A stretch of 64,000 bases of DNA from Anaerolineae bacterium (lineage in GTDB: Bacteria > Chloroflexota > Anaerolineae > B4-G1 > SLSP01): positions 42,137-106,136 of the forward strand of contig DAOOGN010000002.1 of NCBI GenBank assembly GCA_035415725.1. Reading direction: 5' to 3'. Below the pieces are notes generated by a model. It saw nothing but the letters and a program-made list of their open reading frames with translations. It did not search any database and was not told the origin of the DNA. Below, one piece after another: positions 1 through 32,142 of the stretch (within the stretch, counting starts at the first letter, position 1; each line of letters opens with the position of its first letter). The position numbers and the translations under genes were made by a program.

Positions 1-3000
1 GGCATCTGCTGGCAACGGGTCATCGGCGTTGCCGGATGCCGGGAAAGTTTCCGGCGGCGTCAAAGGTTTGAGATGGACTTCCTGGAAGCGTTTGCTTTCA
101 TCAGCGATTCTGTCGTAGAACATATTCATCGTGTCGGTATCTTGTTGCTCAAAATAATAATTGGTCGCCTTGTAGAAGGCTGTCATCCGCAAGACTGATT
201 GTCGCAACAACCAGGCATTATAGACCGCATGACGGCGACGCTCTTTCAAATGGGCTTCGCTACCTAAAACATCCGGCAAAGCCTGTCCCGTAGTGACATG
301 CATCATACCTTCTGCAGCGCGCAGATGCCAGGCAGCGCGTTCAAAAGCGGCGTCATCTTGCACACGCCGCACGGCTTCGCGCAATGCCTGGGTATAATCA
401 CGCCAGATTTGCGCTTCGCTAAAACTCGATGCCATAGATAGTACCTGGTTATAGGCTGTGATGGCGGTAGGATAGTCGCGGCTGAGCAGCGAATCCCACC
501 CCTGATTCATTGCATGACGCAAGTCAGGCAATAGAGCTTCAACGGTTTCAAACCGCTCCCTGAGGTTGAGCAAATCCACATCCGCCGGCGCGATCTTGAA
601 GCCTTGCGTGAACAGCCCCGGCAATGCGCTCAACCGCCAGGCATCTAACCCGGCCTGAATTTGCTGCCGTATCTTGACCAGGGCGGCTTCCTGTTCTTCA
701 CGGATTTGTTGCTGCAAAGTGCGGATGTCGTCGCGAGGGTCTAAACGCAACGCCAGGTCACACAATTCCAATCCGTGTGTAAATTCGCCAGCCCTGCGCT
801 CTACTTCAGCATGCGTCTTCAACCGATCTTGTAAATCTTTGATAGCGCTCTGCACGCGCGGGTAGTCGGGCGCCTCGCCGCGCACTCTTAAGATCCGCGT
901 GACAGCGACTGCCCATTGTTTCGCGCCGATCTCTGTGTGTAGCTCGCGCAGATCGTCATGAACACGATCTAACAACGTACGCAGCGCACGGATACGTTCC
1001 GCCAAATCATCCAGCCGCTTATCCGTGCGCGGCGCGGCAATCCTGATCGCTTTCTCCAGGGCGGTTGTGGCGCCGGCGGGATCATACGCGACCAGCGCTT
1101 TCTCCGTGTCGTCGAGAGCGATATCCAGCTTGGCATTTTGTAACCTCGCGCGCAGGTCAGCGATACGCCCCTGGCGATCCGCCTCCGGCTTGATAATCTG
1201 GGCCGCATCCGCCAGCGCGGAGTGTACGCCCTGTTCGTCGAGGCGTTGCAGCGCTGTTTCAGCTTTTTGTAATTGCGCGTTGAACGCCGCGGTCTGCTCG
1301 CCGGGCAAGCCGGCTGCCCAATCCCGGGTGTCTTGATCCAACTGTGGCACCTGCCTGAGAATGTCAGCGCACTCCAACGCCTGGACATACTTAAGTTCTT
1401 TGATGGCGACTTCCATCGTCATTCTGAGGTCGTCTCTGACCCGCAGACACTGTTCGGTAAAGGCCGTCTCATGGGTGATCTGGGGCGAAGCGTGTTCCAG
1501 CGTTTGCACCGCGCCCGCGTAGTCTTTGGGCGTCCCCAGGAAGGTGCCAATCTCTCGCTTCAGTTTATCCAACAACTGGCGACTTTCGGCCGCCTCCGCT
1601 TCTTGACGCTGCGCCTCCGCCGCCTCTTTTTCCTTTTGGATACGCAGTTGTTCGGCTTTCTCTTCCAGCGTGTGACGCAAGGTCTGCGCGCGCCCTAATT
1701 TGGATATGTCCGGCGGCAAAGCTTTGAAGACGTCCAACGTGCGGGACAGGAGGGAAGGACGTTGTTGATACGCTTCCCAGGCTTCCAACGCTTCCAACAA
1801 CAACTCCCACTGCCGAATCGGGGTATCCGGTTGATCGCCAGGGCACAACCGCTCGGCCTCTTCCAACGCTTTCTTGGCCTCTGCCAGATTGCCCTCCGGC
1901 GCTTGCAGGAGCGCGGCGGCCTGCGCCACACACTCCTGACTGGCCAGCCAGTTGCGCAGCCGATCGTAATCCCGGCTCACCAGCGGCGTGATCCAACCGG
2001 CGGTTTCGGCCTGAGTCAATTTCGCGCGCGCGGCAACGGTGTCCGGCGGGGTCTGATTGAGGAAGTCCGTCACTTCAGCCACCACGCGCTCGCGCAACCG
2101 TTGATAGCAGCGTTCCATATCCTTGTCTGGCGCCGGCTCAAAGTTAGCATCCAACTCTAAAACCCGGCGATACTCCTGTAAAGCCAGGTCCCAGGCTTCA
2201 TTGTTTTGATGAACTTCTGCGCGAGAGAGGGCGCTGATGATTTCCCGTTGGCGTTCATAGGCGGTCTTGAGCAATAGCGAGACGCCGGCGCCGCGCAACT
2301 CAATTTCGGCGTCGCGGAAACGCTTGTTCCCGGCCAGGTCGCGGGCGCGTTTCATCGCGTCTTGGGTGCGCTCAAAGGTGTCCAACGCATTCCGCACCCA
2401 CGTCGCTAATTCCCGCGCCGGGCCATCGTTTTCGTAGCCCTTGACCTGGAAGACTTCTTTGACAGCGCTCTCGAGCCGCTCCAGGTCAATCCGGCCCGGC
2501 GATTTTTTGGCGATATACCCGGCGTCCTCAAGCTGACTCTGCAAAGCGCGCGCGGCGGCCATTTTTTGGTTATAGTCCTGTTCCAGCCGGGCGCGGATAG
2601 AACCCTGGTGGGCTTCGTGAATCTCGGCCGCCAGGGATGCGGCATCCAACGTAATGTCAAACTCCACCTGCACGCCCAGTGCCTCGGCTTCTTCCTGGAC
2701 GGCTTTGACGATATCCAACGCGGCCTGCGGCGTGCCGCGCATCCCCTCTCGCCGCCAACTCTCGAAGCGTTCGCGCGCTTCTTCCAGCCGCAAGCGCAGG
2801 CGGCGTGTGCGTGTTTCGCGCAGCAGGTCTTCAAATTGCCGCACCCAATGGCTCTCCGGCGGCGGATCGAGGATCAGGAAAGGTTTCAATTGCGCCTCAA
2901 GATCGCGCAACTGTTCCTGTTCCAATCGTTTTTGCAACTGTCCCCGCGCGGTTTGCGCCTGTTTTTCCGCCCAGCGGTTGACAATCAGGTTTTGCAGCGT

Positions 3001-6000
3001 TTGGAGTTCATCCAATAGTTCCGGCGCAGCAGTGCGCCCGGTGGCCTGTTTGCAACGATTCCACGCCTCGGCATATTCGCCGTCGCGGTAAAGTTCCTGA
3101 ATTGGATGCACTACGCGCGTCCACTGTTCTTTCTCCAGTTCATCCACCAATTGTTGCGTCTTGTTGAACTTTTCTGGATCAACATTCTGGCGCGAAAGGT
3201 CAGTCAATAGTTCGCGCGCTTCTTTAAATCGTTCCTGCTTAGCCAAAGCCTCTACCTGAAGGAAAGTCTTGTCCGCATTGATCACCGCCTCCAGTTGCCG
3301 CTTGAGCAGACGCGCTTCAGGATCATCTGGGCGTTTCTCAAGCACAGTTTCCACCAGTTGCAGTGCTTCTTTGTATTTGCCAGTCTGCTGCGCCGTGCGG
3401 GCTTTCTCCAGCATTTCCTGTGTGATGCGTTGCTCGCGGATTTGCGTCTGTAACGCCAGGGCTTCTTTGGACGCCGGGTCGCTTTCCAGAATCTTCTGCA
3501 CGATATCCTGCGCTTCTTTGAATTGCCCATTGGCTAACCACTGTTGGGCTTCGGCCAGGGCGCGCTGCATTCCCAGCGTGCTCTCGCGCGCCTCCTCAAT
3601 GCGTTGACGCAGGTAGCCGGCCTCCTCGGCGATGCTCTCGGCATAGCGGTTGTTTTCGGCAAACCGCTCCAGATCGGTCAGATCCAGCAGGGCGTTATCG
3701 GCCTGCCGCTCTTCATTCCACCAGCGCTGCGCGCTTTGCAGTTTGGCGCCCGCGCGCGCGGCGCGCAACAAGTCCCCGGCTTCCGTCGCGCCCAGGCGAA
3801 CGGCCTTTTCAAATAACATGCGCGCTTCAGCGTACTTTTCAGCATCCAGGGCGGCCTGCCCCTCTTTCAGGGCCGCGTCGCGTTCCTGCTGCCCGGCGGC
3901 CAACTTCTCCAGTTCATCCCGGAGCATCTCCAGATACGGGCGTTTGTGACCTTCACGCAGAGTCTTCAGGGTCTCATTGACAGCTCGCAATGCGCCGGCG
4001 TAATCCTGTTCTTGCCGGCAGACCTCAATTTGTTCTTCCCAGACGGCGCCGGCCGCCCAGTCCTCGCGCTGCTGGCGCACGTCGCTCAGAACCTGGAAGT
4101 AGCGATTGCGCTCGTCCACGTCCAACACTTGCAGGTTGATTTCCTTTTGAAGTTTGTCCAGTCGGTTAAGGTAATCGCTCAACTGCTCCACCGTCGTCGC
4201 CAGGTGGCGTCCTGTTTCAATCTGGCTCATCACGTCGTGCAAGGTTTTGCGGGTGGCCTCGACGCGCGCGTTGGCGATTTGCTCGTGCAGCTTCTGCACC
4301 TCGGCATCCAGGTCAGGCAGTTCCTTCAAGGCCGGCAGTGTTTCCAGCGCTTTCTCGGCGGCGTCCCATTCGTTATTTAGATAAGCCTGGCGCGCTTTCT
4401 CAATCTCGGGGCGCGCCTTTTCATCCAAGGCTTGGAGTTTCTCTGCCTTTTCCTGAAATTGTGTAATGGCTTCCCGTATTTCCTGTACCGAGGGTTGACC
4501 CTCTAAAAGTGTAGGAAATTCATGATCGATCTGGTTATAAAATTCTTGCTCGATATCTTGAAGGTTATGCAATGCCGCTTGAAATTCACCGGCGTTCAGA
4601 GCATTTTGAGCGCGCTGCACGCGCTTGTCGGCCGCTTCATTGGCCCGGTTAATCAGCGCTTCAGTACAGTCTGTTAACTGTTGAATGGCCTCCGCATCTC
4701 TAGGATGTCCCTTGATATATTCGGTAGCCGCTCGATAGGCATCGATGAGCTGGCCTAATTGTGTCGCCGATGCTATCACGCCCCTGAGGGCATTATCGTG
4801 CGCCAGGCGGATCCATTGATCCACAAAGAATTGCGCGCGTCCGGCGGCCCAACTTTCCTGACGCAAATTGCCCAACACTCCAAGCCGATCTTGCGCGGTC
4901 TGCCAGTGGTCCGCTTGCCCTAGCGCCAATCCATCATCGCGATCCCCCATCTGAGTCAATTGGTTGAGGATTTCGCGTACTTGTTGCGGCAGCGCTACAT
5001 CCGGTTCCAAGAGTGTATTGAGACCCCGGCGCCAGGTCCGCATCGCATCCATCGGGCTGCTGGCCTGTTGCTCTTCAGCTTCGCGTTCTATCGCGCGCAG
5101 CTTTTCTTCCAGCATACGGCGCTGGCGAATTTCTGCGTAGAGTTTGGCCGTTTCGGTATCGCTCGGATCGAGTTCGCGCACCAGACGCAGCTTCTCCTCC
5201 GCCTCGGTGAGGTCGCCGGATTGGATGGCGGTCTGGGCTGCGAGTTTGGTGCTGTTGATCTTTTCGCGCGCCTTTTCCTCCAACTGCGCGCGGACAGCCT
5301 CCAGTGTGGGATCACTGCCGCGCATTTTTATGACTTCTTGAATCTTGAGCAGGCCGTCAGAGGCTACGAGATTTCGCGCCGCGTCGGCCGCTGCTGTCGC
5401 CCGCTCGTCCAGGTCCTTGAGTTGTTTTTGTAGTGTGCTCAACTCGGCGGGCAATAGCCCGCCCGCATCAGTGGCCTGGGTTTCGACCTCTTCTAATCGC
5501 TTGCGCGCCGGCTCCACGTGCCGGAGCGCGGCGTCGTCCAAAGCGTCGGCAATTTCTACCGGCGTCTCGCCGTCCGCCGCTGCGGCGTAAGCGACCTGTG
5601 CCTGTGACAGCGCGGCACCAGCGGCGCTGCGTGCGGCCTCCAATTCTCGCGCCAGCGCTTCCCATTCGTGCAATTGGCGGCGCGCGCCGGACGGCGCCGA
5701 GTCCCCCATCGCCTCCACGGCCTGTTTCAACGTGACTACGGCCGCCCCCCATTCGCCTTTGTCGCGGCTCTGTTCGGCGCGGGTGTGCGCTGTTTCGTAG
5801 TCCTGCCAGGCGTCGCGCGCGGCGCGCAGCGTTGTGTGCAATGCTTCCAGACCAGCGCACAGGTCGGGCCAGTCAGCCACCAGGTGCAACGCGGATTCCA
5901 AATCTTGCAATAGTGGATCGAGCGCACCGGCCTGGAGGGTGGCCTGTTGTTGTAACGCCGCCCAATCCTTTTTCACTTGCGCAAGCGTGGCTTCCGCCTT

Positions 6001-7584
6001 AGGTTTAGCGCCACACATTCCCACACAAGCTTTAGCCGCATTGTTATCGGGGTTTAGCCCCAGGGCCTCGTTGCCATAGCCGGCCGCTTCCGTGAGCCGC
6101 CCCGCATTGAAAGCGCTTTCGCAGGCCTGCACCAACTGGCTTTCCAGCGCCTCGGTCACCCCGGGGCCGGCAGCCCAGACTTCGTGCGCTTCCTGATAAG
6201 CGCGAACCGCCACGAAAACATCGTTCGCAGCTTTGCCCCGGCCCATCAACGCATTAAATTTTTCAATTTTGGCCTCGACGCGGCGCAAGCCTTCGGCGGC
6301 CTGGCGTTGATGTTCTGGCAGAAGCGCACCGAGGGTCTCCTCAAACAGCGCTCTGGCCTTGCTCAGGTCGCTGCACTCCCACAGGCTCTCGGCGTTGCGC
6401 AGGCGGCCGGCTTCCTCCTCAATGCGCCGGATTTCTGCGGTGACGGTGTTGTGCATCGTCTCCACAACCGCGCCGACGGCGGTGTAATCGCGCCCCTCGG
6501 ATTTGGCGTGCGTTAGACGTTGCAACGCCAATTTCAGGGATTGCGCGGCTTCGTCGCGGCGGCCCTCATCCCAATCCAGACGTGCTTGCTTCTGTTGTGC
6601 GGTGATGGCAACCAGGTCCACACTTTCGTCGCGCAGGCCGGTGGCGTCCAGGTGGGCGGGGTAGATTGTTAGCACCTCCTCGAAAACCTTCTGCGCGCCT
6701 TCAAACTGGCGCTTCGCCTGATCAAAGGAGCGCTGTTGGTTTTGCTGTCGCCCGGCTTCCAACAATTGCCGCCCGTAAGTCATGCCGGCCTGGAGGTAAA
6801 GTTGTTGCCACAACGGCACGTCCTGATACCGGCTGCGCTGCTGTTCCAACTGCGCCAGCGCGTCGGTCCAGCGACTCTCGGCGATGGCTTTCTCAATTGC
6901 CGCCAGGTCGCGTTTCTGGCTGTCCAGATAGCTGCGAGCCTGGCGCAACCATCCCTGCGCCTGAGCATACAAGGGCGAGGCCTGGGGGATGTTTTCCAGC
7001 AGCATGATGCCCTGTTCAAACTCCCGCGCGCGAAGGGCTTCTTCGGCTTTGCGCAGCAGGGCTTGATGGTCGCCCTGGCTCAGCGCATTCGTGCGGACGT
7101 TTTCCAGTTCACTTCTCAGCGGTTGGTAGACCGGCTCCTGGGGTAACTGTCGTAACATATCTGCGGCGGCGTTGGCGGCGGCTTCCCAATCGCCGACGGC
7201 GTTGACCTTGCGGATTTCAGCCTGGGCGTTGTGCACCCGCGTCTGCCAGTTGTGCAGATCAAGGGCCTGATTGCGCTTGTGTTCCAAATCTGTGTGGAAC
7301 TTCAGAATCCGGGGCGAGGCCACCGCGAAGTCGGTGATGGCGATGTACTCGTCCGCCGCGTTGCGATAGTCGCCCTGCGCCATCAGCGCGTCGGCCTCGG
7401 TCAGGCGTTCTTTGATTTCGGCCTCTTTTTCAACCGCGCGCTGCGCCAGACGCAGCCCCTGATCGGCTTTGGGATTGTTGGCATCCAGGTCGCGCGCCTG
7501 TTGATAGAGCCGCTGCGCCTTTTCCCAGTCGCCTTCGGTCATCGCTTGTTCGGCTTGTTGTAAGAGATAGGGTAACTGAGACAT
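1..7584 (-). CDS. Giant alpha-helical TPR-like repeat protein, 5' portion only (>=2528 codons in window; continues past position 1). Not in ORF track because no stop in window.
   Basis: Reverse-complement of 7582-7584 is ATG preceded by AGGAGG (rc of cctcct at ~7589-7594), 4 nt spacer; translation begins MSQLPYLLQQAEQAMTEGDWEKAQRLYQQARDLD... Frame checked by hand at ~2960-3000 (..LQNLIVNRWAEKQ..) and ~470-501 (..GWDSLLSRDYP..), both consistent with one continuous minus-strand frame; all other-frame ORFs in 1-7600 are short (<160 aa). Sequence is all-alpha, Ala/Leu/Glu/Arg/Gln-rich with recurring TPR-like A..A..Y..A spacing. Confidence 0.7.
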   Translation of the reverse strand, partial: MSQLPYLLQQAEQAMTEGDWEKAQRLYQQARDLDANNPKADQGLRLAQRAVEKEAEIKERLTEADALMAQGDYRNAADEYIAITDFAVASPRILKFHTDLEHKRNQALDLHNWQTRVHNAQAEIRKVNAVGDWEAAANAAADMLRQLPQEPVYQPLRSELENVRTNALSQGDHQALLRKAEEALRAREFEQGIMLLENIPQASPLYAQAQGWLRQARSYLDSQKRDLAAIEKAIAESRWTDALAQLEQQRSRYQDVPLWQQLYLQAGMTYGRQLLEAGRQQNQQRSFDQAKRQFEGAQKVFEEVLTIYPAHLDATGLRDESVDLVAITAQQKQARLDWDEGRRDEAAQSLKLALQRLTHAKSEGRDYTAVGAVVETMHNTVTAEIRRIEEEAGRLRNAESLWECSDLSKARALFEETLGALLPEHQRQAAEGLRRVEAKIEKFNALMGRGKAANDVFVAVRAYQEAHEVWAAGPGVTEALESQLVQACESAFNAGRLTEAAGYGNEALGLNPDNNAAKACVGMCGAKPKAEATLAQVKKDWAALQQQATLQAGALDPLLQDLESALHLVADWPDLCAGLEALHTTLRAARDAWQDYETAHTRAEQSRDKGEWGAAVVTLKQAVEAMGDSAPSGARRQLHEWEALARELEAARSAAGAALSQAQVAYAAAADGETPVEIADALDDAALRHVEPARKRLEEVETQATDAGGLLPAELSTLQKQLKDLDERATAAADAARNLVASDGLLKIQEVIKMRGSDPTLEAVRAQLEEKAREKINSTKLAAQTAIQSGDLTEAEEKLRLVRELDPSDTETAKLYAEIRQRRMLEEKLRAIEREAEEQQASSPMDAMRTWRRGLNTLLEPDVALPQQVREILNQLTQMGDRDDGLALGQADHWQTAQDRLGVLGNLRQESWAAGRAQFFVDQWIRLAHDNALRGVIASATQLGQLIDAYRAATEYIKGHPRDAEAIQQLTDCTEALINRANEAADKRVQRAQNALNAGEFQAALHNLQDIEQEFYNQIDHEFPTLLEGQPSVQEIREAITQFQEKAEKLQALDEKARPEIEKARQAYLNNEWDAAEKALETLPALKELPDLDAEVQKLHEQIANARVEATRKTLHDVMSQIETGRHLATTVEQLSDYLNRLDKLQKEINLQVLDVDERNRYFQVLSDVRQQREDWAAGAVWEEQIEVCRQEQDYAGALRAVNETLKTLREGHKRPYLEMLRDELEKLAAGQQERDAALKEGQAALDAEKYAEARMLFEKAVRLGATEAGDLLRAARAGAKLQSAQRWWNEERQADNALLDLTDLERFAENNRYAESIAEEAGYLRQRIEEARESTLGMQRALAEAQQWLANGQFKEAQDIVQKILESDPASKEALALQTQIREQRITQEMLEKARTAQQTGKYKEALQLVETVLEKRPDDPEARLLKRQLEAVINADKTFLQVEALAKQERFKEARELLTDLSRQNVDPEKFNKTQQLVDELEKEQWTRVVHPIQELYRDGEYAEAWNRCKQATGRTAAPELLDELQTLQNLIVNRWAEKQAQTARGQLQKRLEQEQLRDLEAQLKPFLILDPPPESHWVRQFEDLLRETRTRRLRLRLEEARERFESWRREGMRGTPQAALDIVKAVQEEAEALGVQVEFDITLDAASLAAEIHEAHQGSIRARLEQDYNQKMAAARALQSQLEDAGYIAKKSPGRIDLERLESAVKEVFQVKGYENDGPARELATWVRNALDTFERTQDAMKRARDLAGNKRFRDAEIELRGAGVSLLLKTAYERQREIISALSRAEVHQNNEAWDLALQEYRRVLELDANFEPAPDKDMERCYQRLRERVVAEVTDFLNQTPPDTVAARAKLTQAETAGWITPLVSRDYDRLRNWLASQECVAQAAALLQAPEGNLAEAKKALEEAERLCPGDQPDTPIRQWELLLEALEAWEAYQQRPSLLSRTLDVFKALPPDISKLGRAQTLRHTLEEKAEQLRIQKEKEAAEAQRQEAEAAESRQLLDKLKREIGTFLGTPKDYAGAVQTLEHASPQITHETAFTEQCLRVRDDLRMTMEVAIKELKYVQALECADILRQVPQLDQDTRDWAAGLPGEQTAAFNAQLQKAETALQRLDEQGVHSALADAAQIIKPEADRQGRIADLRARLQNAKLDIALDDTEKALVAYDPAGATTALEKAIRIAAPRTDKRLDDLAERIRALRTLLDRVHDDLRELHTEIGAKQWAVAVTRILRVRGEAPDYPRVQSAIKDLQDRLKTHAEVERRAGEFTHGLELCDLALRLDPRDDIRTLQQQIREEQEAALVKIRQQIQAGLDAWRLSALPGLFTQGFKIAPADVDLLNLRERFETVEALLPDLRHAMNQGWDSLLSRDYPTAITAYNQVLSMASSFSEAQIWRDYTQALREAVRRVQDDAAFERAAWHLRAAEGMMHVTTGQALPDVLGSEAHLKERRRHAVYNAWLLRQSVLRMTAFYKATNYYFEQQDTDTMNMFYDRIADESKRFQEVHLKPLTPPETFPASGNADDPLPADA

Positions 7585-7629
7585 GCATCCTCCTGAAACG
7601 TGATCTGCGTTCGTAATTCGTTGTTCGCC

Positions 7630-9558
7630 CTATTGTTTGACCACCAACGGTAGAAACACTTTGACCGGCCAGTAGCGAGTGACGGTTTCGTTACTGGGCT
7701 GGCAGCCGCCGAGTTCTTTACTGCAAATCCAGGCTGTATTACTGACAACAATGTCTGGCGGCGTTGGGACAAGTGGGGGCACATCTGTCTTATAGCCAAG
7801 CTGTAAGGTGTCACTGGTACAACTGGGTTTGACCGTCCCTTCTATATCCGGAGCCACAGCTTGCGCGTCCACTCGTTGCGTATATGACACCAGATCCTGT
7901 AAACGGATCGTGTAGGTTAGCGGCATCCGGGTACTGAACTCTTCTATGACGCACGTTGTTACCGTTAAGTAACCGGTTTGTTGAATGATGCCGGGCACGC
8001 GCCAGATCACGTCATGCCCGTTGAGGGCAAATTCAGAACCCGGTACACTTGATGCAATGCTATCCCCCTTCTTGGGATAAAGCTGGGGTGGCAATGTTCC
8101 CGTGACCAGGATGCCGGAAGACACCTCGGGCGACTGGGGTGTAGGGGTATAGATGATTGTATAGATTATCTCCGATTGTAAGAGCCACGTGGTATTCTCC
8201 GGCGTCCAGACAGCCCGGCGCGCGCTCGCCAATTCCCACTGCGACGCCGATTGAGCATCAACAACCCGCACCGTGAATGCAGCTTCCCCATTAGCTCCCG
8301 GCGACAGCGCGCCGATATTCCAACGCAATATGCCAGCCTCCGGTGTGACGCTGCCGGAGGCTGTGATCCATGTTGTATTGGCCGGTACGGTATCTGTGAT
8401 CACCACACCGGTCTGTCCATCGGGATGCGGCCAGGGATTGGCATAGCGGAGGGTGTAGGTGATGAGCTTGCTGTAGGCAAAGTCGCCGTCCAGCGCGGCG
8501 GATTTGTGGAGGGTGAGGGTGGCGGCGGGAACAGGCAGGACACCTTTCCATACTGCGTTGGTATACCCATCAGCCGTTTGTCCACCGAGTACATAAAGCT
8601 CGCCAAAGCGCGAAGCGACAGAAAGTCGCCGGTTGCCGCCGCCGGGCATCGGCGAGGATGCCCACTCACCCACAAAATCGCAGGTATCAGGGTTGATGCC
8701 GATGCTGTAAACTTGATCGTTCAGCGCGCCGCCGGTGGTCTCGCCGCCCAGGACGTAGAGGGTGTTTTGGTCAATGGCAACATCGTGGTAAGCAAGAGAA
8801 ATTGGCAAGCTCCCGGCATTTTGCCACGCAGTTATCACACCTGATTCACTATGATCCCAAATAGCGCGATAGATTTCTGCACGATTGGCATTACTAACTC
8901 TACCACCAATTATATAAAGGCACGTGTCCAATGCCGCTAGTTTTGTGTACGCCAACTTGTCAGGTAAACTTCCTTCTGCACGCCATGCCCCTAGAACACC
9001 ATCAGTATCCATAGGGGCGGACCAAACCAGCTCAGAGAAAGAACCATTGGTTGTAACGCCGCCAGCGATATACAGCCGATCTTGGGACACCGTTGCCGCG
9101 GAAAATCTTAATGCCTGGGGCATCGCAACCTCGCTACGCCAACTCACACCGTCAAATGAATCTACTCGCATAAGAAGCGTAGTACCATCGTACCCACCCA
9201 TGACGTAGGCTCTCCCATTAGCAGCCGTTGCCGCAGCACCGAAACGTGGCGTTTCAAGGGCATTGGTTGTATTCCACTCCGTACCTAGAGGTTTCAGGTT
9301 CAACTGATGCACAGCATTGAATGGACTTTGGGCGCTTCCCACCCAACCACCTACGTAATAAAGGACATTATTTAATACAAAGGCGACGCCATCGCCTGCG
9401 GATTGAGACAGTGGTGGCAACGTTGTCCATTCAGGTGTCGCGGCGAGTGCTGTGTGTTCTGCGCCACTCACGAGATGAGCATTGCCGGCTATAAAGCTCA
9501 TCCCCGTTACCAACATACAAATCCATATTCCGATAACCAGACTAAATTTCCTACGCAT
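7630..9558 (-). CDS. Secreted Kelch-repeat (galactose-oxidase-like beta-propeller) protein with C-terminal DUF11/Ig-like region
   Basis: N-terminal hydrophobic signal-like segment (KFSLVIGIWICMLVTGMSFIAG); repeated LYxxGG / VMGGYDG / LYIIGG / LYVLGGQT Kelch blade motifs; C-terminal beta-rich segment. Confidence 0.7.
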   Translation of the reverse strand: MRRKFSLVIGIWICMLVTGMSFIAGNAHLVSGAEHTALAATPEWTTLPPLSQSAGDGVAFVLNNVLYYVGGWVGSAQSPFNAVHQLNLKPLGTEWNTTNALETPRFGAAATAANGRAYVMGGYDGTTLLMRVDSFDGVSWRSEVAMPQALRFSAATVSQDRLYIAGGVTTNGSFSELVWSAPMDTDGVLGAWRAEGSLPDKLAYTKLAALDTCLYIIGGRVSNANRAEIYRAIWDHSESGVITAWQNAGSLPISLAYHDVAIDQNTLYVLGGETTGGALNDQVYSIGINPDTCDFVGEWASSPMPGGGNRRLSVASRFGELYVLGGQTADGYTNAVWKGVLPVPAATLTLHKSAALDGDFAYSKLITYTLRYANPWPHPDGQTGVVITDTVPANTTWITASGSVTPEAGILRWNIGALSPGANGEAAFTVRVVDAQSASQWELASARRAVWTPENTTWLLQSEIIYTIIYTPTPQSPEVSSGILVTGTLPPQLYPKKGDSIASSVPGSEFALNGHDVIWRVPGIIQQTGYLTVTTCVIEEFSTRMPLTYTIRLQDLVSYTQRVDAQAVAPDIEGTVKPSCTSDTLQLGYKTDVPPLVPTPPDIVVSNTAWICSKELGGCQPSNETVTRYWPVKVFLPLVVKQ

Positions 9559-9584: not shown

Positions 9585-10883
9585 CTACGGACATGTACAC
9601 ACTTCATGTGGGTTACAGTCGTATTCCTCTTCACTAACACATATAACCTTTTCATTTGTATCCGTGCCCCATTCAGCACACCTTTTGCACTTGTCATATT
9701 CCGTCCTACAGCTAGGACAGCCACCATTTTGCCCACAAGTTTTATCCGGGCAACCGTCGTTGGGCAAATCAGGGCAGACACTACCGGCATCTGGGAAACC
9801 GTCGCCATCTCCATCCGGGCAACCTCGGATTGTTCCAGGCGTGTCCGGGCAACAATCCTCTTTGTCCAAGACGCCATCGCCGTCGCTATCCGGGCAACCG
9901 TCTTTTCCGGCAGCCTTTTGAGCGGCGTGGGGGCAGGCATCGGTCTTGAGCGCCGGGCAGGCTTTGTCGTTTTGTTCCACAAAGCCATCGCTGTCGCTGT
10001 CTGGGCAACCGCTCAAGGCGGGAACGCCAGCCCTTTGTGGGCAGCAGTCTGATATATCCGGCACGGTATCGCCATCGCTGTCCAATTGAAGCGTCAGGTT
10101 CAAGGCTAGCACGAACTCGCGGTCTGGGAGATTGTATTGTGCGCCATCGGGCTTCAGAAATTGCAATGTCAAGGTGATGGTATGTCGCCCCTCTTCTAGT
10201 GGTGGCCAGGCATAGTCAAATTTGAATATCTGTCCGGCATTGAAGAGCAACGCCGGTGCATCGGCGACCACTTCAAAACCCTGATTCAAGTCCAATATCT
10301 GGGCTTGAATCAAGCGGCATTGACCTGTATTGCTCAAGATGAAGGTGGTCTTCAGTCCCTCTACCGGCGATTCCAGAGAACGAACCGTACGGGTAATCTC
10401 AGCCGGGCTTTCCTGGTACACACCAAAATCGAAGTCGGGAATGTCATCCTCATCCTCAGCAGTGTTGATAGTACAGCCAGCCAATAAGTCACCCAACGGT
10501 AAAGGCGTAGGCGTGGGCGTGGGGGTGTTCGTGGGCGTAGGAGTGAAGGTAGGAGGAAGTGGCGTGGGGGTGGGGAATGGTGTATAGGTAGGTTGTGGAG
10601 TAGGTGTAGGTTCGAGCGTTGGCGTTGGGGTGCATAAACCACTGGCAGCGTCACAGACAAATGCCGGGATAGTCACAGCGCCGGCCGACCACAACCCTCC
10701 CAGGATTACACCTGCGAGCAACAGGGCTAAGGGAATGCCAATCAAAAGGACTTTGCGCAATGAGAACCCACCTGATTGAGCACGCAAAGTCTCGCAATTC
10801 TCCATCGCCTCGGCGTGCAGTTGCGCCCACAGTTCACCTACTTCGGGCGGTACAGAATTTCTAAGGGTTAAGCGTTCACTCAT
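9585..10883 (-). CDS. Single-pass membrane protein with Pro/Thr linker and thrombospondin type-3-like Ca-binding repeats (DxDxDG-x-D, Cys-paired)
   Basis: TM helix LLIGIPLALLLAGVILGGLW; long PTPTP linker; repeated CPDSDSDGF / CPDSDGDGVLD / CPDGDGDGFPD motifs typical of TSP3 repeats. Start only 5 nt after stop of upstream gene. Confidence 0.65.
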   Translation of the reverse strand: MSERLTLRNSVPPEVGELWAQLHAEAMENCETLRAQSGGFSLRKVLLIGIPLALLLAGVILGGLWSAGAVTIPAFVCDAASGLCTPTPTLEPTPTPQPTYTPFPTPTPLPPTFTPTPTNTPTPTPTPLPLGDLLAGCTINTAEDEDDIPDFDFGVYQESPAEITRTVRSLESPVEGLKTTFILSNTGQCRLIQAQILDLNQGFEVVADAPALLFNAGQIFKFDYAWPPLEEGRHTITLTLQFLKPDGAQYNLPDREFVLALNLTLQLDSDGDTVPDISDCCPQRAGVPALSGCPDSDSDGFVEQNDKACPALKTDACPHAAQKAAGKDGCPDSDGDGVLDKEDCCPDTPGTIRGCPDGDGDGFPDAGSVCPDLPNDGCPDKTCGQNGGCPSCRTEYDKCKRCAEWGTDTNEKVICVSEEEYDCNPHEVCTCP

Positions 10884-10888
10884 AATCG

Positions 10889-13800
10889 TTACCTCTTTGG
10901 CGGCGCCTGCCGCAGTGTCGGGCGGGCGGCGCCAGACTTGTTGGCCGGCGCAGCGACTGGACGGGTCACAGGTTCGGCGGCGGGGGCGGCAGTCTTCGTT
11001 TGCGCTGGTTTGGACTTGTTCCGGGATGATTTCCTCTTTTGGGGCGCGACTTGGCCCTCAGTCGCCCACGGCTCCGTGGCCTCTTGCACGATCTCCCACA
11101 GCCGGCTGGCCGTGTCGCGGCGGCCTTCGGCCTCGGCGTGGCTTGCCTGTTCATCCACGCCCTGGCGGATCGCCTGGTAGGCTTTTTCGGCCAGCCAGCG
11201 CGATTGCGGCACGGTCAAAATCTGCTGTTGCAACTGCGTCACTGCGTCGGGCAGCGCCAGGATGCCCGCGATCTGGCGGCCCAGGGCGGCAATCAGCTCT
11301 TGTTGCAGGGCCTCATAGTTGATCTGCAAGGCCTGGCGCGGCAGCGCCAACAAGGAGGAGGCATTCTCGTCCAGGCTATTGAGCATCCCACTGTTTTCCA
11401 ATTCTTTGTAAAGCAGCGCCAACCCTTGCATCGCCTGGCTGGTGCGGAGCCGTTGCGCCTCGCCCAATTGCGTCGCCACGGTGTAGTGAGTTCCAGCCTC
11501 TTTGCCCACCTGCGCTAACCCCGCGCGGTCGTTCCAGAGCAATTCGAGCGCCTGCCACAGGTCGCGCAACCGTTTGACCGCTTGTTGGACGTCGCGGGTC
11601 AGGGTTTGGAGCGCGCGGACTTGTTCAGCGTCGTAACGGTAGACCGGCGCGGACGGGAGAGACTCTGGCGCGCTGGTCGCGTCGGGCGCTTCCGTCGCCA
11701 CCGGCGCGGCAGACGGCATGGCCTGCGGCGTCTGGAGTTTAACTTGACCCGCTTCTTCAAGCAGTTTCTTAAATGCGCCCACCTGCTCCTTTAGCGCGTT
11801 CAAAGCGCCGTCGGCAATGCGCCATCCCGTCCCAATGTCGGCGGGATGCATTTTCTCCGGCAAGAAAGGCACTTTGTCCAACGGCAGGCTGCCCAAGGCG
11901 TTATTAAACGCTTCGGCGCGCGTCAACAACAGTTCCGGTTCGCGGAACCCACTCATATCGTGGAGTATCAGCAGTTGTTCGGCGGCGGCGGCCAGGATAG
12001 TTTTCGGCAATTCCAGCGTCGCCCGCATTTCCGGGGAAGGCAATTCCAGCGCAATGGTTCTTTGCCACCACGCCTGGTAATAAAGCGCCAATACCCGCTG
12101 CGGATCGGCGGTGGGATGTTGTTTTTGCTCGTTCACCGCCTCCTGCAAGGCGCGGTGCAGGCCCTGCACGGCGGCGCGCTCGGCAGTCTTCAGGCTTTCG
12201 CGCAAGGCCTTTGTGCGGAGGGGGGTGGCCTGCGCCAAGGCATCCAGGGGCGTATCGGCCAGGTCGCGGCCAATGTGGATAACCTGCGCGTAATTTTTCC
12301 GACCGGCTTCGGGTTCCAGGTCGTTCACCGGCTGTAACGCGGCAGCGAGTTCCATCGTGGCCGCGCGTTCCAATTCGGCGCGGGCCGCGGCCAGGTCGTT
12401 GGTGGATACGGCGGCGTGCGTCGGGAAGGCAACGGTTTTGCTTTCCTGCGCGGCGGCCTGGAAGCTATAATCAGGGGTGGTCGCTAGGCGATTCAGGAGC
12501 GCACCCAAGTCGTGTTCCGCTGCCAGGCGCGTGCGCAAAGCCCCACTCAGGTTACGGAGCCGTTCCTGGACAGTGGTTGACAGTCCATTATGCAGTACCT
12601 GCGGAATGTCATTCCATAGCGCATCAAGTTCTTCCAGGGCGGGGCGGAATTCGTGGGAGCGGGCGCGTTTTTCAAGGCGTTCCAGTTCTTCCTGGATAAA
12701 GTCTTCCAGGTGCGTCAGCAGGGTTGCGCGCCACTCTGTCGTGCGTTGACGCAACTCTGTCCAACTCTGTGGCCCGGCCAGCACGTCCAGGTCTTCGGCC
12801 AGGCGTGCCAGCGTCTCTTGCCGGTCGGCCAGGCTCAGCCAGTAGGGGCGGCCCTCGCCTTGTAGCCGCTGCGCCACCGCCATAGCCCGCTCTACCAGCG
12901 CGTTCATCCCGCTGAATACGGCCTCGCTCTGCGGGAAGCGCTGCGCTCCCTCGCGGAGGCGCGCGCCAAGTTGCCCCAGGCCATCCTGGGCTAAAGCCTG
13001 GCATAAAACCTGCCACTGTTCGGCCGCCCGGTTGCGCGATTCCTGTGCAGCGCGCCCCTGATCGTCGCGCAGGTCGTCCAGCGCCTGGCGCAGGTCATCA
13101 AAACTCTGCGGTTGAGCCAGCAACGCCGCCGCACTCAAGCGGTTCGCCACACGGCGCCGGGCCTCTTCATGTTTCTGGCGCAGCCCGGGCGTCAGGGGCG
13201 TGCGCGTTTGCAGCGCTTCGCACAGACTGACCGCCTCGGCGTAATCGCCCTCATCCCAGGCGCGCTGGATGTTGCGAGCGGCGTCGCGGGTGATTTCAAT
13301 CCGCTGTTGTAGCGTCCCCGCCTCGCTGCGCAGCTCAGTTTGCAGGTGGAAGGGCCGCGCCCCGACCGCGTCGGGCAACGTCTGCCCGCCGGCCAGGTCG
13401 CGCAAGGCGCGCCGATCCCAACCATCGAAACGCTGCAACTGCGCCAGGGCCTGCTCGAATTCCTCATTATTCAGATAGGTTTCGGCGTTTTGCCGGCAAC
13501 TGCGCGCCTGTTCCAACAAGCGCGCGCCGGCCTCGGCCTCAGCTTGCATCTCGCGGGCCTGGGTGCGGGTGGGGGCCAGTTGTAGCACCACGCGCACCTG
13601 TTCCAGGGCGGCGTCATAACGCCCGGCGACGATTTCCTGTTGCGCGGCGTGAAGTGCCAACGCCTGTTGGCGCAGTGCGTCGGTCACTTCTATGCGGGTC
13701 TGCATCTGTCGCGCAAAAAGCTGCGCCCGGCGTTGGGCGGGGTCCTCGCGCAGGATGGCGTCAAAGCGTTCCGCCGCCGCCGCGAATTTCTGCCGCACGT

Positions 13801-15523
13801 TTTGGTAGGTTTCGGCAGCCTGAGCGTAATCGGCCTGCGACTCATCGGCGGCGCGCGCTTCCTTCAACGCAGTTTCGCCTTGCGCCACGTTCTCATCCGC
13901 CTGCACGTAATGGGTCAGAAAGTTTCGGCGCTGGCTTTCCCGCGTGCGTTCCAACGTCAACCGTTCCTTGAATTCCGGCTCAAAGGGCGCCAACTCCTGC
14001 ACTTTTTCCAGTTCTTTCACCGCCCCGGCGTGGACGTCAATTTTTTTCGCTTCGACGGTCAACCAGTCCGGCGTCAGTTCATCCAGGTGATTTTCGGCTT
14101 CGGCGAGCGCAGCGGCGATCTCACGGGTGTAGCGCGTGCCTCCCGTAATCCAATGCTCCAAATCTTGAAGAGGTTCCCAGGTGCGGCTCTCCGGGCGCAG
14201 ACGTATCACTTCCGCCAGCGCGCCCTGGGCATCCTGCCAGCGACGCTCAACCAGAGCTTTGATCATACGGCTTTCCAGGACTTCCCATTCGGGCGTGCGG
14301 CGCTCGTCGGCGCCCTGATGTTGTAACTTGAGCAACTGCCCAACCCGCGCGAACCGCTGGTAGATGGTTGCCAGGCGCGCTGCCTCGCTCTCCGGCGACA
14401 AGATTTTAAGCTGCGCGGCAAATTCCTGGTCGGCCTTTTCGTAAGCACGGGTTCCCAACGTCACCAGCGCCTGGGCAATGGGCAACCAATTCTCTTTGTC
14501 CAGTTCGTCGTGCGCCTGTTTGCGCGATTGCTCGAAGGATTGGCGGGCGTCAGCAGGCGGATTAAGACGCAACGCCAGGTCGGCAATCGCCAGGACGCGG
14601 TCGTAACGCGCCGCGGGTTTGGCCTGCCACAGGCGGTCGTCCAGGCGGCGGAAAACGCCGGAGGTTTCAATTTGCGCCAACACGTCGTTCCACCAGGCCA
14701 CGTCAGCCGCCAGCACTTCGATCTGAGGGTAACGGCGTTTAACATCGCGGTGGAGGAGTCTGGCGACGATTTGCCGGCTGCCGGCGGTTAAATTGCTCCA
14801 CCCCAGGTTGCCCATACCCAGGTTCGCCGGCGGGCGGCCCTCGGCATCCACTGGGATGTGGTGTCCGGTCAGCAGATAGTAAAGATGCCCGCCGAAGAAG
14901 AAGAGGTCCTGTGCCATTGATTCCGGTCCACCCGTAACGTTCCAGTCAATCATCTTGAAGATGAAATCATGATGTTCTTCATCCAGCCATTGCACACGGA
15001 AGCGGTCGCCCTTGGTGGCCGGTTCGAAATCCTTGAGCGACATCCCGCTGTGGTGCGTCAGCGCGATCACGTCCACTACCGCCTGGGCGATGGCGAAGAC
15101 GCGGCGCTCATCGGCGGGCGAGGTCACGTCGAAGCGTTCCAGAGTTGGCGGTGCGATCTCCTGCACCACAAGTGGTTGTCCCGGTGCCATGTCGCCGGTG
15201 TCCAACAGGGCGATGATACGGCGCTTAGAGGCAGTTTCCTGGGTACGCCGGTAGCGTGACATAGCGTCAGGAAGGCGCTGCCAAGTATCGTCTTCAGCTT
15301 GATTGAGCTGCGTAAGGACCTGGGCTTCACGTTGCAGGGCGGCAGCTTTGCCTATATCGTCAGCCGCATCGTCACGCACGATTTTGAGCACCACCTGCGC
15401 GTTCTCTATACCATCCAGCAACGCCAGATAGGCATCCGAGATCGCGCCGCGTCCCAGGCGCTCGCCCTGCACACGATAGCGGGCGGTATTAAACGTTATG
15501 ACTTCGCCGTCGTAAAATTTCAT
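10889..15523 (-). CDS. 1544-aa protein: N-terminal degenerate protein-kinase-like domain followed by ~1200 aa all-alpha (TPR/coiled-coil-like) region and Ala/Pro/Lys-rich tail
   Basis: Gly-loop-like LGRGAISDAY and VVLKIV (beta3 Lys) near N-terminus; catalytic-loop position reads HHSGMSLKDFEPA and DFG position reads IDWNVTGG (non-canonical), suggesting pseudokinase or atypical kinase; rest helical, E/A/R/Q/L rich. Confidence 0.7.
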   Translation of the reverse strand: MKFYDGEVITFNTARYRVQGERLGRGAISDAYLALLDGIENAQVVLKIVRDDAADDIGKAAALQREAQVLTQLNQAEDDTWQRLPDAMSRYRRTQETASKRRIIALLDTGDMAPGQPLVVQEIAPPTLERFDVTSPADERRVFAIAQAVVDVIALTHHSGMSLKDFEPATKGDRFRVQWLDEEHHDFIFKMIDWNVTGGPESMAQDLFFFGGHLYYLLTGHHIPVDAEGRPPANLGMGNLGWSNLTAGSRQIVARLLHRDVKRRYPQIEVLAADVAWWNDVLAQIETSGVFRRLDDRLWQAKPAARYDRVLAIADLALRLNPPADARQSFEQSRKQAHDELDKENWLPIAQALVTLGTRAYEKADQEFAAQLKILSPESEAARLATIYQRFARVGQLLKLQHQGADERRTPEWEVLESRMIKALVERRWQDAQGALAEVIRLRPESRTWEPLQDLEHWITGGTRYTREIAAALAEAENHLDELTPDWLTVEAKKIDVHAGAVKELEKVQELAPFEPEFKERLTLERTRESQRRNFLTHYVQADENVAQGETALKEARAADESQADYAQAAETYQNVRQKFAAAAERFDAILREDPAQRRAQLFARQMQTRIEVTDALRQQALALHAAQQEIVAGRYDAALEQVRVVLQLAPTRTQAREMQAEAEAGARLLEQARSCRQNAETYLNNEEFEQALAQLQRFDGWDRRALRDLAGGQTLPDAVGARPFHLQTELRSEAGTLQQRIEITRDAARNIQRAWDEGDYAEAVSLCEALQTRTPLTPGLRQKHEEARRRVANRLSAAALLAQPQSFDDLRQALDDLRDDQGRAAQESRNRAAEQWQVLCQALAQDGLGQLGARLREGAQRFPQSEAVFSGMNALVERAMAVAQRLQGEGRPYWLSLADRQETLARLAEDLDVLAGPQSWTELRQRTTEWRATLLTHLEDFIQEELERLEKRARSHEFRPALEELDALWNDIPQVLHNGLSTTVQERLRNLSGALRTRLAAEHDLGALLNRLATTPDYSFQAAAQESKTVAFPTHAAVSTNDLAAARAELERAATMELAAALQPVNDLEPEAGRKNYAQVIHIGRDLADTPLDALAQATPLRTKALRESLKTAERAAVQGLHRALQEAVNEQKQHPTADPQRVLALYYQAWWQRTIALELPSPEMRATLELPKTILAAAAEQLLILHDMSGFREPELLLTRAEAFNNALGSLPLDKVPFLPEKMHPADIGTGWRIADGALNALKEQVGAFKKLLEEAGQVKLQTPQAMPSAAPVATEAPDATSAPESLPSAPVYRYDAEQVRALQTLTRDVQQAVKRLRDLWQALELLWNDRAGLAQVGKEAGTHYTVATQLGEAQRLRTSQAMQGLALLYKELENSGMLNSLDENASSLLALPRQALQINYEALQQELIAALGRQIAGILALPDAVTQLQQQILTVPQSRWLAEKAYQAIRQGVDEQASHAEAEGRRDTASRLWEIVQEATEPWATEGQVAPQKRKSSRNKSKPAQTKTAAPAAEPVTRPVAAPANKSGAARPTLRQAPPKR

Positions 15524-15594: not shown

Positions 15595-16515
15595 TCATGG
15601 TAAATAGCGCAGCAAGGCAACACTGTTATCCTGCGTGGCTGCCGCCACGCAGCGGCCACACACCAGGGAAAGGTTATTGACCGTCACGCGCAAGGCTGTG
15701 GAGGCCAGTACAGCGCCGCTCGCGGCGTCCACGATAGCGACGCGGCCTTCGTAGCCGCCACCCACCGCAAGCAGCGGCGCGGCGGCGTCTGCAGCCAACG
15801 TCGCCGGGCTATCAAGGTTTTGCTTCCAGAGCACTTTGCCGAGGTCGGCGCTATAGGCGATCAGGCGCACTGCGTCGTATTCGTCCGGCGTGAGAACCGC
15901 GACGCCGGCGTTGTCGGCCAGCGCAGCGACGGCCATCACGGCGCCATCACACTCGCGGCGGTGCAGCGCCATGCCACTGCCGGCGTCCAGCGCGAGCAGC
16001 CAGTTGGTGCCGCTGCTTGCGCTGCCGACATAAAGTATATTGCCGTCTGCTGTCAGACTGACTGACCAGTTGCACCCGTGCACCGCCTCGCCACTGTCTT
16101 GCTGCCGCCACACCACGTTGCCTTCCAGATCAAGCATAGTCAAGGCAAAGGTGTAGTGCCCCAACACAATCCGTTCCGCCGCAAAATCCAGCGTATGGAT
16201 GCCGTTAACACTATGATGCAGATGACGGGGATCGAGACTGAAACGGCCCGCGGATGGTTCCAGGTCGCAGACAAGGAGGTCGCCCAGGCGCGTCGCCAGG
16301 GACAGGCGCGTGAAGTCGAGGGAGGTGCGAATTTGATGCACTGGCATCTCGGCGTCGGCGGCAGGATACGCACCCAGACGATGGCCACTCAGGTTGAAGA
16401 CGGCAGCACCAACTTCACTTCCTACAGCCACATACTGCCCATCACCGGACTGCGCGATGCTGGAGACCGGGCGGTAGACCTGGATCCATCTGAAGATTTC
16501 GAGGCGAGCGGGCAT
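15595..16515 (-). CDS. Beta-propeller repeat protein (WD40/PQQ-like)
   Basis: 306 aa with repeated short beta-strand blocks (VAVGSEVGAAVF, ILYVGSASSG, LLAVGGGYEGRVAIVD) typical of propeller blades; start 3 nt after stop of tubulin-like gene (tight coupling). Confidence 0.6.
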   Translation of the reverse strand: MPARLEIFRWIQVYRPVSSIAQSGDGQYVAVGSEVGAAVFNLSGHRLGAYPAADAEMPVHQIRTSLDFTRLSLATRLGDLLVCDLEPSAGRFSLDPRHLHHSVNGIHTLDFAAERIVLGHYTFALTMLDLEGNVVWRQQDSGEAVHGCNWSVSLTADGNILYVGSASSGTNWLLALDAGSGMALHRRECDGAVMAVAALADNAGVAVLTPDEYDAVRLIAYSADLGKVLWKQNLDSPATLAADAAAPLLAVGGGYEGRVAIVDAASGAVLASTALRVTVNNLSLVCGRCVAAATQDNSVALLRYLP

Positions 16516-25954: not shown

Positions 25955-25955
25955 T

Positions 25956-25992
25956 GAAGCCCCTCCCCCAGACAGGGGTGGGGGCTTCTTGT
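25956..25992 (+). terminator. GC-rich hairpin (14-bp stem, 5-nt loop) followed by TTGTGG directly after TPR gene stop; candidate intrinsic terminator
   Basis: gaagcccctccccc-agaca-ggggtgggggcttc then ttgtgg; one G-U and one mismatch in stem; U-tract weak. Confidence 0.35.
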
Positions 25993-26043
25993 GGCATTGG
26001 GGTCAAGCGAGCATTTCTGGCGCTGATGATAACTACACTCTTG

Positions 26044-26193: not shown

Positions 26194-26445
26194 CTGCGTC
26201 TCCTTTCTCTGAGAGAAAATGAGCAAGACGCGGGTCCCCCCAGTCGCTGACTGGCTTCGAAGACGTCCGGCTGTGAATAAACTTGGTGAGCGCGCTTTCA
26301 TTTATCACTATAGCCGAAATCAGGTATACGTGCTATAGTAGCATGTTGAAAACGCCCTGATTCTGTACTGAAAATGGCTGAAAGTTTTGCTCTATAAATG
26401 AAGTCACGTTGACGAACTTGTATTCCTTGTAAGGTGGAGTCTCTT

Positions 26446-27840: not shown

Positions 27841-27852
27841 ACGGGGTATTTT

Positions 27853-32133: not shown

Positions 32134-32142
32134 GGTCGCCCC

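Follow-up and report, generated by a model that had tools for sequence, protein, structure and literature searches.

An uncharacterised FtsZl1-vWA gene cluster in an Anaerolineae bacterium that most likely holds a giant scaffold of long-helix TPR repeats

What does a stretch of bacterial DNA encode when a list of its open reading frames (ORFs) offers only short, mutually overlapping ones? This question is raised by the first 7,584 nucleotides (nt) of a 64,000-nt stretch from an Anaerolineae bacterium (contig DAOOGN010000002.1 of assembly GCA_035415725.1, positions 42,137 to 106,136 of the forward strand; hereafter the window), for which a preliminary description, made from the letters alone, had proposed an unlisted minus-strand gene for an all-alpha protein, resembling tetratricopeptide repeat (TPR) proteins, of at least 2,528 amino acids (aa) and running off the window edge. 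We found that this giant ORF is a genuine gene under selection, and that it is flanked on both sides by other members of a conserved cluster, at least 16 genes in size, that is most likely an uncharacterised FtsZl1-vWA supercluster holding a giant long-helix TPR scaffold. The gene is already deposited as hypothetical, and its product is large and odd in its repeat design, yet of a known class, the TPR-type scaffold.

Computational translation of the minus strand from position 7584 down to position 1 yields an uninterrupted run of 2,528 sense codons, which bears out the open frame that had been proposed; the other five frames of the same interval contain 40-97 stops. From base composition ~88 stops would be expected in the giant frame (probability of none ~1e-39), and each of 200 shuffles contained at least 64. 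Its GC content at codon positions 1/2/3 (0.69/0.41/0.67) is a coding pattern. The frame opens at an ATG (7584-7582) preceded, at a spacing of 4 nt, by the AGGAGG Shine-Dalgarno sequence (7594-7589) that the preliminary description had read there, and this start is supported because the N-terminus of the protein, MSQLPYLLQQAEQAM, is kept in homologues; the preceding gene ends at 7630. The two features are as follows.

1-7584, minus strand: partial coding sequence, residues 1-2528 of 2,699, with 171 further codons past position 1 (open frame, 100% match to the complete protein P0001, substitution rates)
7589-7594, minus strand: Shine-Dalgarno sequence AGGAGG, 4 nt before the ATG at 7584-7582 (read from the sequence)

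A search of 5.8 billion proteins returned the complete product, P0001, of 2,699 aa and 100% identical over the entire query, and the window lacks only its final 171 residues. It is held in GenBank, from a metagenome-assembled genome (MAG), as HQE91277.1/HQH36940.1 ("hypothetical protein PLH19_00190 [Anaerolineae bacterium]"). Fifteen contigs, which come from several sources and of which the longest has ~285 kb, carry the same protein without a difference. The ratio of non-synonymous to synonymous substitution rates (dN/dS) against orthologues was 0.13 at 87% aa identity and 0.16 at 67-70%, and the gene is therefore under purifying selection. That the frame is open by chance, or is a pseudogene or an assembly artefact, has a single point in its favour, its absence from the ORF list; the list does show only short overlapping ORFs in 1-7600, but this is a display artefact, because the program that made it skips ORFs that run off the end of the source. 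The vanishing probability of a stop-free frame, the recurrence of the protein on 15 contigs, the low dN/dS and colinear homologues down to 22% identity all speak against such an artefact, which we regard as practically negligible. The lesson for annotation is mundane: the giant ORF was invisible only through crossing the window edge. The suggestion that it belongs among the largest bacterial proteins was overstated; it is large at 2,699 aa, but bacterial proteins above 10,000 aa exist.

A word-indexed search found 24 relatives, nearly all of 2,400-2,860 aa. A profile covering the first 1,200 residues (four-sequence alignment), run against 1.84 billion cluster representatives, gave 502 matches at E<=1e-3 and 96 at E<=1e-30, and at least 53 full-length representatives span 2,182-2,861 aa (median 2,611). 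Query residues 1-1200 align to residues 1 to 1,177-1,243 in 20/20 homologues, the most distant at 22% identity. The array is conserved to an even degree throughout, and the only indel-prone parts are residues ~1950-2150 and the tail. Judged from these alignments, the family is strikingly colinear, with a fixed architecture. In the GTDB species set, a non-exhaustive scan with two peptide patterns found it only in a few Anaerolineae/Anaerolinea MAGs. Residues 1-1200 gave no tblastn match in phage and plasmid collections, and we therefore have no evidence for a mobile-element origin. Literature searches found no description of the family. One relative, P0010 (1,658 aa, on an 11.5-kb contig), is 76% identical to the query over P0010's first half and ends in a 'cyanobacterial TRADD-N associated 2TM' domain, which may reflect a genuine domain swap or a chimeric assembly.

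What, then, is the protein built of? AlphaFold2 models of residues 1-1200 and 1301-2500 (21-sequence alignment; residues 1201-1300 lie outside both) are all helical, with mean predicted local distance difference test (pLDDT) scores of 88.4 and 84.2, respectively. They contain 93 helices that take up 81% of residues and alternate between short (median 14 aa) and long (median 32 aa), with a median period of 55 aa. The parts of the protein that lie in the window are these.

88-7575, minus strand: predicted alpha-solenoid array of ~45 TPR-derived hairpins, residues ~4-2499 (AlphaFold2 models, helix statistics, hhalign, unit consensus)
7474-7566, minus strand: first TPR motif, near-canonical, residues 7-37 (best Pfam TPR_2 stretch, profile 4-34 of 34; AlphaFold2 helices 4-17 and 20-33)
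3292-3411, minus strand: TPR-like units, residues 1392-1431 (Pfam TPR_19, TPR_14, Fis1_TPR_C)
2140-2223, minus strand: TPR_1-like unit, residues 1788-1815, under the Pfam cutoff
1585-1665, minus strand: charged low-confidence insert, residues ~1974-2000 (pLDDT <50 at 674-700 of the second model; alignment blocks 1951-2150 gap-rich)
1-84, minus strand: residues 2501-2528, where the disordered, P/S/T/E-rich linker of the C-terminus begins; its remainder and the terminal aromatic/acidic peptide fall beyond the window (sequence, and composition of P0001)

Few units are individually recognised by Pfam. Over the whole protein TPR_2 scores 42.7 bits (cutoff 27) and Fis1_TPR_C 30.6 bits (cutoff 25.3), the Fis1_TPR_C and TPR_19 matches falling around residues 1392-1438, and the precomputed Pfam annotation of P0001 consists of PF14853 and PF07719 only. 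The consensus of 32 model-delimited units, '..A..al.aG.(W/F/Y).eA..lLe.vl.l.P.d.dA', is the TPR signature, with a G-x-aromatic turn between helices A and B. A TPR motif has 34 aa, with small or large hydrophobic residues at positions 8, 11, 20, 24 and 27 and a helix-breaking Pro near position 32; the giant protein carries this sequence signature, in its Pfam scores as in its unit consensus, but not the 34-residue period, its long helices being spaced at a median of 55 aa. Beyond the first unit, the long helices correspond to helix A with an N-terminal extension and the short ones to helix B, and on these models the unit is a 34-aa TPR with helix A lengthened by ~20 aa, giving a period of ~55 aa. 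The internal repeats are detected by hhalign on 150-residue windows of the family alignment, which revealed pervasive similarity (probability 90-97%) between dozens of window pairs. Tandem repeats at the DNA level were searched for in positions 1-7700 and none was relevant, so the array is ancient and its repeats degenerate. The all-alpha, TPR-like fold that had been proposed thus holds, with the qualifier that the unit is of 55 aa.

Foldseek searches of the PDB with both halves returned Ski3, TPR subunits of IFT-A, Ctr9, Naa15, APC/C subunits, OGT and P58IPK (probability up to 1.0, E down to 3e-9). Like the long eukaryotic TPR scaffolds (Ski3, TTC21B/IFT139, Ctr9, Naa15, APC/C, P58IPK), the giant protein is an all-helical series of tandem TPR-type hairpins, and the elongated connecting helices of P58IPK are likewise found in it. 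Those scaffolds are non-enzymatic platforms of multi-subunit complexes, and we propose the same for the giant protein. It differs from them in being bacterial, in its unit of ~55 rather than 34 aa, in the low global similarity (TM-score <=0.1), in its disordered tail with a terminal putative docking peptide, and in its length, about twice that of Ski3; a sequence search of the PDB with the full protein found no match at E<=0.01. No enzymatic or NTPase domain was found in the 2,528-aa query (Pfam, NCBIfam) or in the precomputed Pfam annotation of P0001, NCBIfam yielding solely a spurious sub-threshold match.

The protein is rich in A, L, E, R and Q. It has no signal peptide and no transmembrane segment (its top 19-residue Kyte-Doolittle window reaches only 1.06), and we therefore place it in the cytoplasm. 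Many giant bacterial proteins are adhesins, and the neighbouring genes encode secreted Kelch/DUF11 and vWA proteins, which might suggest a secreted or surface-exposed, adhesin-like repeat protein here too. We consider this very improbable, given the lack of export or membrane signals, a fold that is all-alpha and TPR-like rather than Ig or beta-helix, and the absence of tandem repeats in the DNA.

After residue ~2500 the array gives way to a P/S/T/E-rich disordered linker of ~190 aa that ends in an aromatic/acidic peptide (e.g. ...SIFGAGWWANSENYDDEDTR). The terminal motif ...W..G[FY]...[ST]YD[DE]E recurs in the family, and by a crude criterion linker and aromatic/acidic terminus are present in 36/53 full-length representatives.

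With which genes does the giant gene travel? Six same-strand genes precede it in the window, with gaps of 3-71 nt, and in order of transcription they are the following.

20028-22367, minus strand: vWA (von Willebrand factor A) protein, first gene of the operon, 779 aa, with signal peptide and intact metal ion-dependent adhesion site (MIDAS; DNSCS) (Pfam, sequence)
16519-19992, minus strand: FtsZl1-type tubulin homologue, 1,157 aa, Tubulin_2 domain plus long helical C-terminal extension, GTP-binding signature AGGTGSG (Pfam PF13809)
15595-16515, minus strand: cytoplasmic PQQ/BamB-like beta-propeller, 306 aa (Pfam, topology)
10889-15523, minus strand: cytoplasmic protein of 1,544 aa, with weak kinase-like N-lobe, ~500 aa of giant-type repeats and an unrelated helical half (BLASTP, profiles)
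9585-10883, minus strand: bitopic membrane protein, 432 aa, with TP-rich linker and Asp-rich DxDxDG-type repeats (NCBIfam and topology scans)
7630-9558, minus strand: Kelch beta-propeller and DUF11 protein, 642 aa, with signal peptide (Pfam; N-terminal hydrophobic segment)

The Tubulin_2 match (PF13809) has E=2.5e-47 and covers profile positions 1-355 of 356. The 1,544-aa protein had been suggested as a paralogue of the giant protein. BLASTP between the two gives E=2e-4 over ~200 aa only, and profile-profile comparison places giant-type repeats in residues ~300-800 alone; the kinship thus holds for a repeat type common over ~500 aa, but not for the N-terminal ~290 aa or the C-terminal half, which is unrelated. 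Those N-terminal ~290 aa match the N-lobe of Hanks Ser/Thr kinases weakly (StkP E=7.5e-5; PknB and PD-T4-6 models), on visual inspection the regions of the catalytic loop and of DFG seem degenerate ('SLKDFEPAT', 'IDWN'), and the protein may be a pseudokinase fused to TPR-like repeats. A 'C......LCTPTPT' juxtamembrane/linker motif is common to the 432-aa membrane protein and to the 286-aa protein encoded downstream of the giant gene.

The giant gene had also been taken for the terminal gene of the operon; this proved wrong, as at least nine same-strand genes follow it on longer contigs of the same genome. In order, their products are a TPR protein of 286 aa, a calcineurin-like phosphoesterase, the second vWA protein of the cluster, a Cys-rich protein of 281 aa, a P-loop protein, a multi-pass membrane protein, the third vWA protein, another membrane protein and at least one more gene product. 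The P-loop protein (433 aa, four genes downstream in the count of the analysis) carries the Walker A motif GGPGYGKS and matches NPHP3_N/AAA_35 weakly. The MIDAS motifs of the three vWA proteins are DNSCS, DGSNS and DQSGS, and all three proteins start with a signal peptide or anchor. Two conserved products have no Pfam match: the 281-aa protein (locus L001, 22337-23182) is possibly a zinc ribbon by its Cys-rich CGECPECS...GCC, and a 476-aa protein (L001 24561-25991) is soluble in its N-terminal part, after which come several hydrophobic segments.

The order giant gene, TPR protein, phosphoesterase (and vWA) is kept at loci where the giant protein is 67%, 42%, 34%, 28% and 24% identical to ours; the entire order from Tubulin_2 onward was found at 28% identity, and a size-matched gene series at 30%. 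A conserved companion is the 286-aa protein, whose gene directly adjoins the giant gene (L001 18155-19015) and is conserved in eight loci (besides L001, in L003, L004, L005, L006, L009, L010 and L011). This bitopic protein has a cytosolic N-terminus with two giant-type repeats (hhalign probability 97% against the giant repeat profile), one transmembrane helix in which the motif LAQ[LVI]N..I.WP..C is conserved, then a (T/P)n linker and, towards the C-terminus, a region that is SH3b-like by eye only. In the three locus tables that give both ends, its gene starts 2-5 nt past the end of the giant gene or overlaps it, which suggests translational coupling of the two.

The predicted cytoplasmic products of the cluster, besides the giant protein, are the FtsZl1 homologue, the beta-propeller, the 1,544-aa protein, the phosphoesterase and the P-loop NTPase; the membrane and extracytoplasmic ones are the three vWA proteins, the Kelch/DUF11 protein, the bitopic protein with Asp-rich repeats and the multi-pass proteins. 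We considered docking of the acidic C-terminal peptide into a vWA MIDAS or the Kelch propeller and rejected it: the signal peptides or anchors of all three vWA proteins and of the Kelch protein predict an extracytoplasmic location for them, on the other side of the membrane from the giant protein.

To what known system does such a cluster belong? FtsZl1 tubulin homologues were described computationally in 2010, and their operons with vWA genes were predicted to encode membrane-associated, membrane-remodelling complexes (Makarova and Koonin, PMC2875224); our literature searches found no experimental characterisation of these homologues. The present cluster has features of the operons described there: an FtsZl1 gene with a GGGTGSG-type loop (here AGGTGSG) and a long helical C-terminus, linked vWA proteins, often membrane-associated, with an intact MIDAS (DxSxS; three here), and many membrane-associated lineage-specific proteins. 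For the kinase and diverged GTPase components that are frequent in such operons, possible counterparts here are the 1,544-aa protein, with its weak N-lobe match to StkP/PknB (E=7.5e-5) and degenerate-looking catalytic motifs, and the Walker A P-loop protein. A giant TPR-like component, a calcineurin-like phosphoesterase and a STAND-fused paralogue (see below) are present here and are not mentioned for FtsZl1-vWA operons in the passages available, and a term search of PMC2875224 for 'TPR', 'phosphatase' and 'large protein' gave zero occurrences of each.

On this basis we lean towards a reading, in our view somewhat better supported than not, in which the giant protein, tethered to the membrane, serves as the cytoplasmic scaffold for an FtsZl1-vWA assembly that spans the envelope and is possibly a conflict system. 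The tether would be the bitopic 286-aa protein encoded directly downstream, whose cytosolic units could cap the solenoid or continue its stack; the long array would offer many peptide-binding grooves to other cytoplasmic subunits, and the C-terminal peptide, on its flexible tether, might dock onto one of these or into a TPR groove. The whole would be an FtsZl1-vWA machine of the membrane-remodelling type predicted in PMC2875224. STAND NTPases, caspase-like proteases, EAD7, TCAD9 and Tox-GHH encoded nearby would be consistent with a role in conflict or programmed cell death in these filamentous, multicellular Anaerolineae.

Several observations weigh against this proposal. A scaffold is the default reading of any long TPR array, and the structural matches establish a locally TPR-like fold but not the global superhelix or shape, with Foldseek TM-scores <=0.1 and a predicted TM-score (pTM) of 0.35-0.37. 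Filament formation by FtsZl1 is not demonstrated according to PMC2875224. At locus L011 the contig ends 2 kb upstream of the giant gene and carries no tubulin gene in that interval, and the tight linkage is therefore with the downstream genes rather than with FtsZl1. The PADLOC-DB 2.0 models gave no match to the giant protein (and only weak PD-T4-6 kinase-like matches to the 1,544-aa neighbour), and no MoxR was found in the cluster genes scanned, DO-GTPase and GAP1 likewise being none reported.

The conserved length and colinearity of the family, and its linkage to an FtsZ/tubulin homologue as well as to adhesive domains at the membrane and outside the cytoplasm, would also fit a structural cytoskeletal element or molecular ruler, a rod or superhelix of fixed length that acts with FtsZl1 to shape the membrane or septum of the filamentous cells or to set a dimension, as a housekeeping, morphogenetic function rather than a conflict function; the membrane remodelling that Makarova and Koonin proposed for FtsZl1 operons (PMC2875224) points the same way. 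We hold this to be improbable, as the family is patchy (the genome scan matched few Anaerolineae MAGs only), conflict-type genes abound in the neighbourhood, and the same source gives no evidence of FtsZl1 polymerisation.

Two related genomes have a second giant gene ('giant-2') on the same strand, ~22-26 kb farther downstream. Giant-2 genes were located at three loci, as follows.

Locus L007, 9989-18251: giant-2
Locus L012, 10001-15760: giant-2
Locus L013, 10001-18586: giant-2

The first 1,200 residues of the L007 product are 50% identical to the query, and another paralogue, P0014, matches the first ~54% of the query at 56% identity. In P0014, the L007 ORF and P0005 the array is followed, after ~1,500, ~1,880 or ~2,500 residues, by an nSTAND6/AAA_16 NTPase. 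The L007 frame is split into ORFs of 2,248 and 521 aa that overlap by 50 nt, perhaps by a frameshift or a sequencing error. The neighbours of giant-2 encode HerA/FtsK-like ATPases, SPFH-like, DUF4230, YbjN, AAA_35/nSTAND1 and CAP-domain proteins and a caspase-family Peptidase_C14, with a Tox-GHH protein beside giant-2 in one genome; further conflict-type neighbours of homologous loci are nSTAND3/EAD7 and NACHT-FGE-sulfatase proteins.

These fusions bring up the main rival to a membrane-tethered scaffold, namely that the giant protein acts as sensor arm in an immune or cell-death switch of the STAND type, its array binding an invader or damage ligand and signalling to an NTPase, either the 433-aa P-loop protein or giant-2, the latter co-assembling via the homologous arrays. 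Paralogues that fuse the same array to an nSTAND6/AAA_16 NTPase, with the paralogue lying ~22-26 kb downstream of the giant gene in two genomes, both on one strand, argue for it, as do the TRADD-N-associated 2TM end of P0010, the STAND, caspase, EAD and TCAD neighbours and the P-loop protein with its GGPGYGKS. The giant protein itself, however, has no NTPase domain; its conservation is uniform and its dN/dS low, with no hypervariable region of the kind usual in immune sensors; PADLOC gave no match; and the 433-aa protein shows no BLASTP relation to the fused STAND module. Like STAND NTPases with TPR arrays (MalT, or the NB-ARC-TPR pair at 23332-25954 of the window), P0005, P0014 and the L007 ORF join an array to a P-loop switch; unlike in those classical proteins, where the repeats follow the NTPase, they precede it in the paralogues, and the array is 5-10 times the usual length. 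Taken together, we judge the sensor arm to be rather unlikely, though deserving of serious attention. Two ideas were tried and dropped: the 433-aa P-loop protein as a Rosetta-stone connection to the paralogues' fused STAND module, for which BLASTP similarity was not significant, and a 2,246-aa ORF of the window (50803-57543, minus strand) as a further giant paralogue, which is unrelated and encodes a Big_5/DUF11/LTD surface-type protein.

Superstructure-forming TPR repeats, tubulins and vWA domains also occur in the NTP-dependent conflict systems described from multicellular prokaryotes (Kaur, Burroughs, Iyer and Aravind 2020, PMC7159879). With these systems our cluster and its surroundings share vWA domains, tubulin homologues, TPR repeats, calcineurin-superfamily phosphoesterases, STAND NTPases, caspase-like proteins and EAD/TCAD domains, and the host belongs to a filamentous Chloroflexota lineage, the systems being enriched in multicellular prokaryotes. 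They differ in that neither of their defining cores, MoxR-vWA and DO-GTPase/GAP1, was seen in the genes examined here, where the nearby domains are of the accessory type only (EAD7, TCAD9, nSTAND, Peptidase_C14), and in that the vWA proteins here appear extracytoplasmic. We claim a resemblance to these systems, not membership.

Within the window, a block at 23332-34005 (plus strand), divergently upstream of the operon, has a GC content of 50-53% against ~59% and encodes an NB-ARC STAND NTPase, a TPR_12/MalT-like TPR ORF, Trans_reg_C, TCAD9, a 451-aa unknown protein and CHAT (caspase-like); its NB-ARC and TPR_12/MalT-like ORFs overlap (the pair at 23332-25954) and are possibly one frameshifted gene. 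The block looks like a conflict-system island adjoining the tubulin-like operon. Farther along, the 2,246-aa ORF contains Lamin-tail, DUF11, Big_5, DUF5689 and OB-fold domains, and beside it, at 58999-63150 (plus strand), lies a gene for a 1,383-aa PAS/GAF hybrid histidine kinase with a receiver domain.

The cluster amounts to a conserved, largely complete parts list around one FtsZl1, with a predicted topology in which the GTPase, giant scaffold, phosphoesterase and NTPase are cytoplasmic and the vWA, Kelch and SH3b-like modules extracytoplasmic. Its likely stoichiometric membrane anchor and candidate docking peptide are handles for reconstitution, and the ~55-aa 'long-helix-A' TPR unit, in ~45 copies whose predicted count stays fixed despite divergence to 22% identity, is an unusual repeat design. 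More speculatively, and as a long shot, the giant protein may be a self-assembling platform of fixed length, in which the terminal '...YDDEE-COOH' is caught by a TPR carboxylate-clamp groove, forming a membrane lattice or ruler that organises the tubulin homologue; the groove would be that of another copy, of the membrane-anchored partner or of giant-2. If this were true, a tubulin homologue would be coupled to extracytoplasmic vWA, Kelch and SH3b modules, and the assembly would be the prokaryotic equivalent of the TPR-scaffold/tubulin machines of eukaryotes and might trigger caspase/STAND cell death in a multicellular filament.

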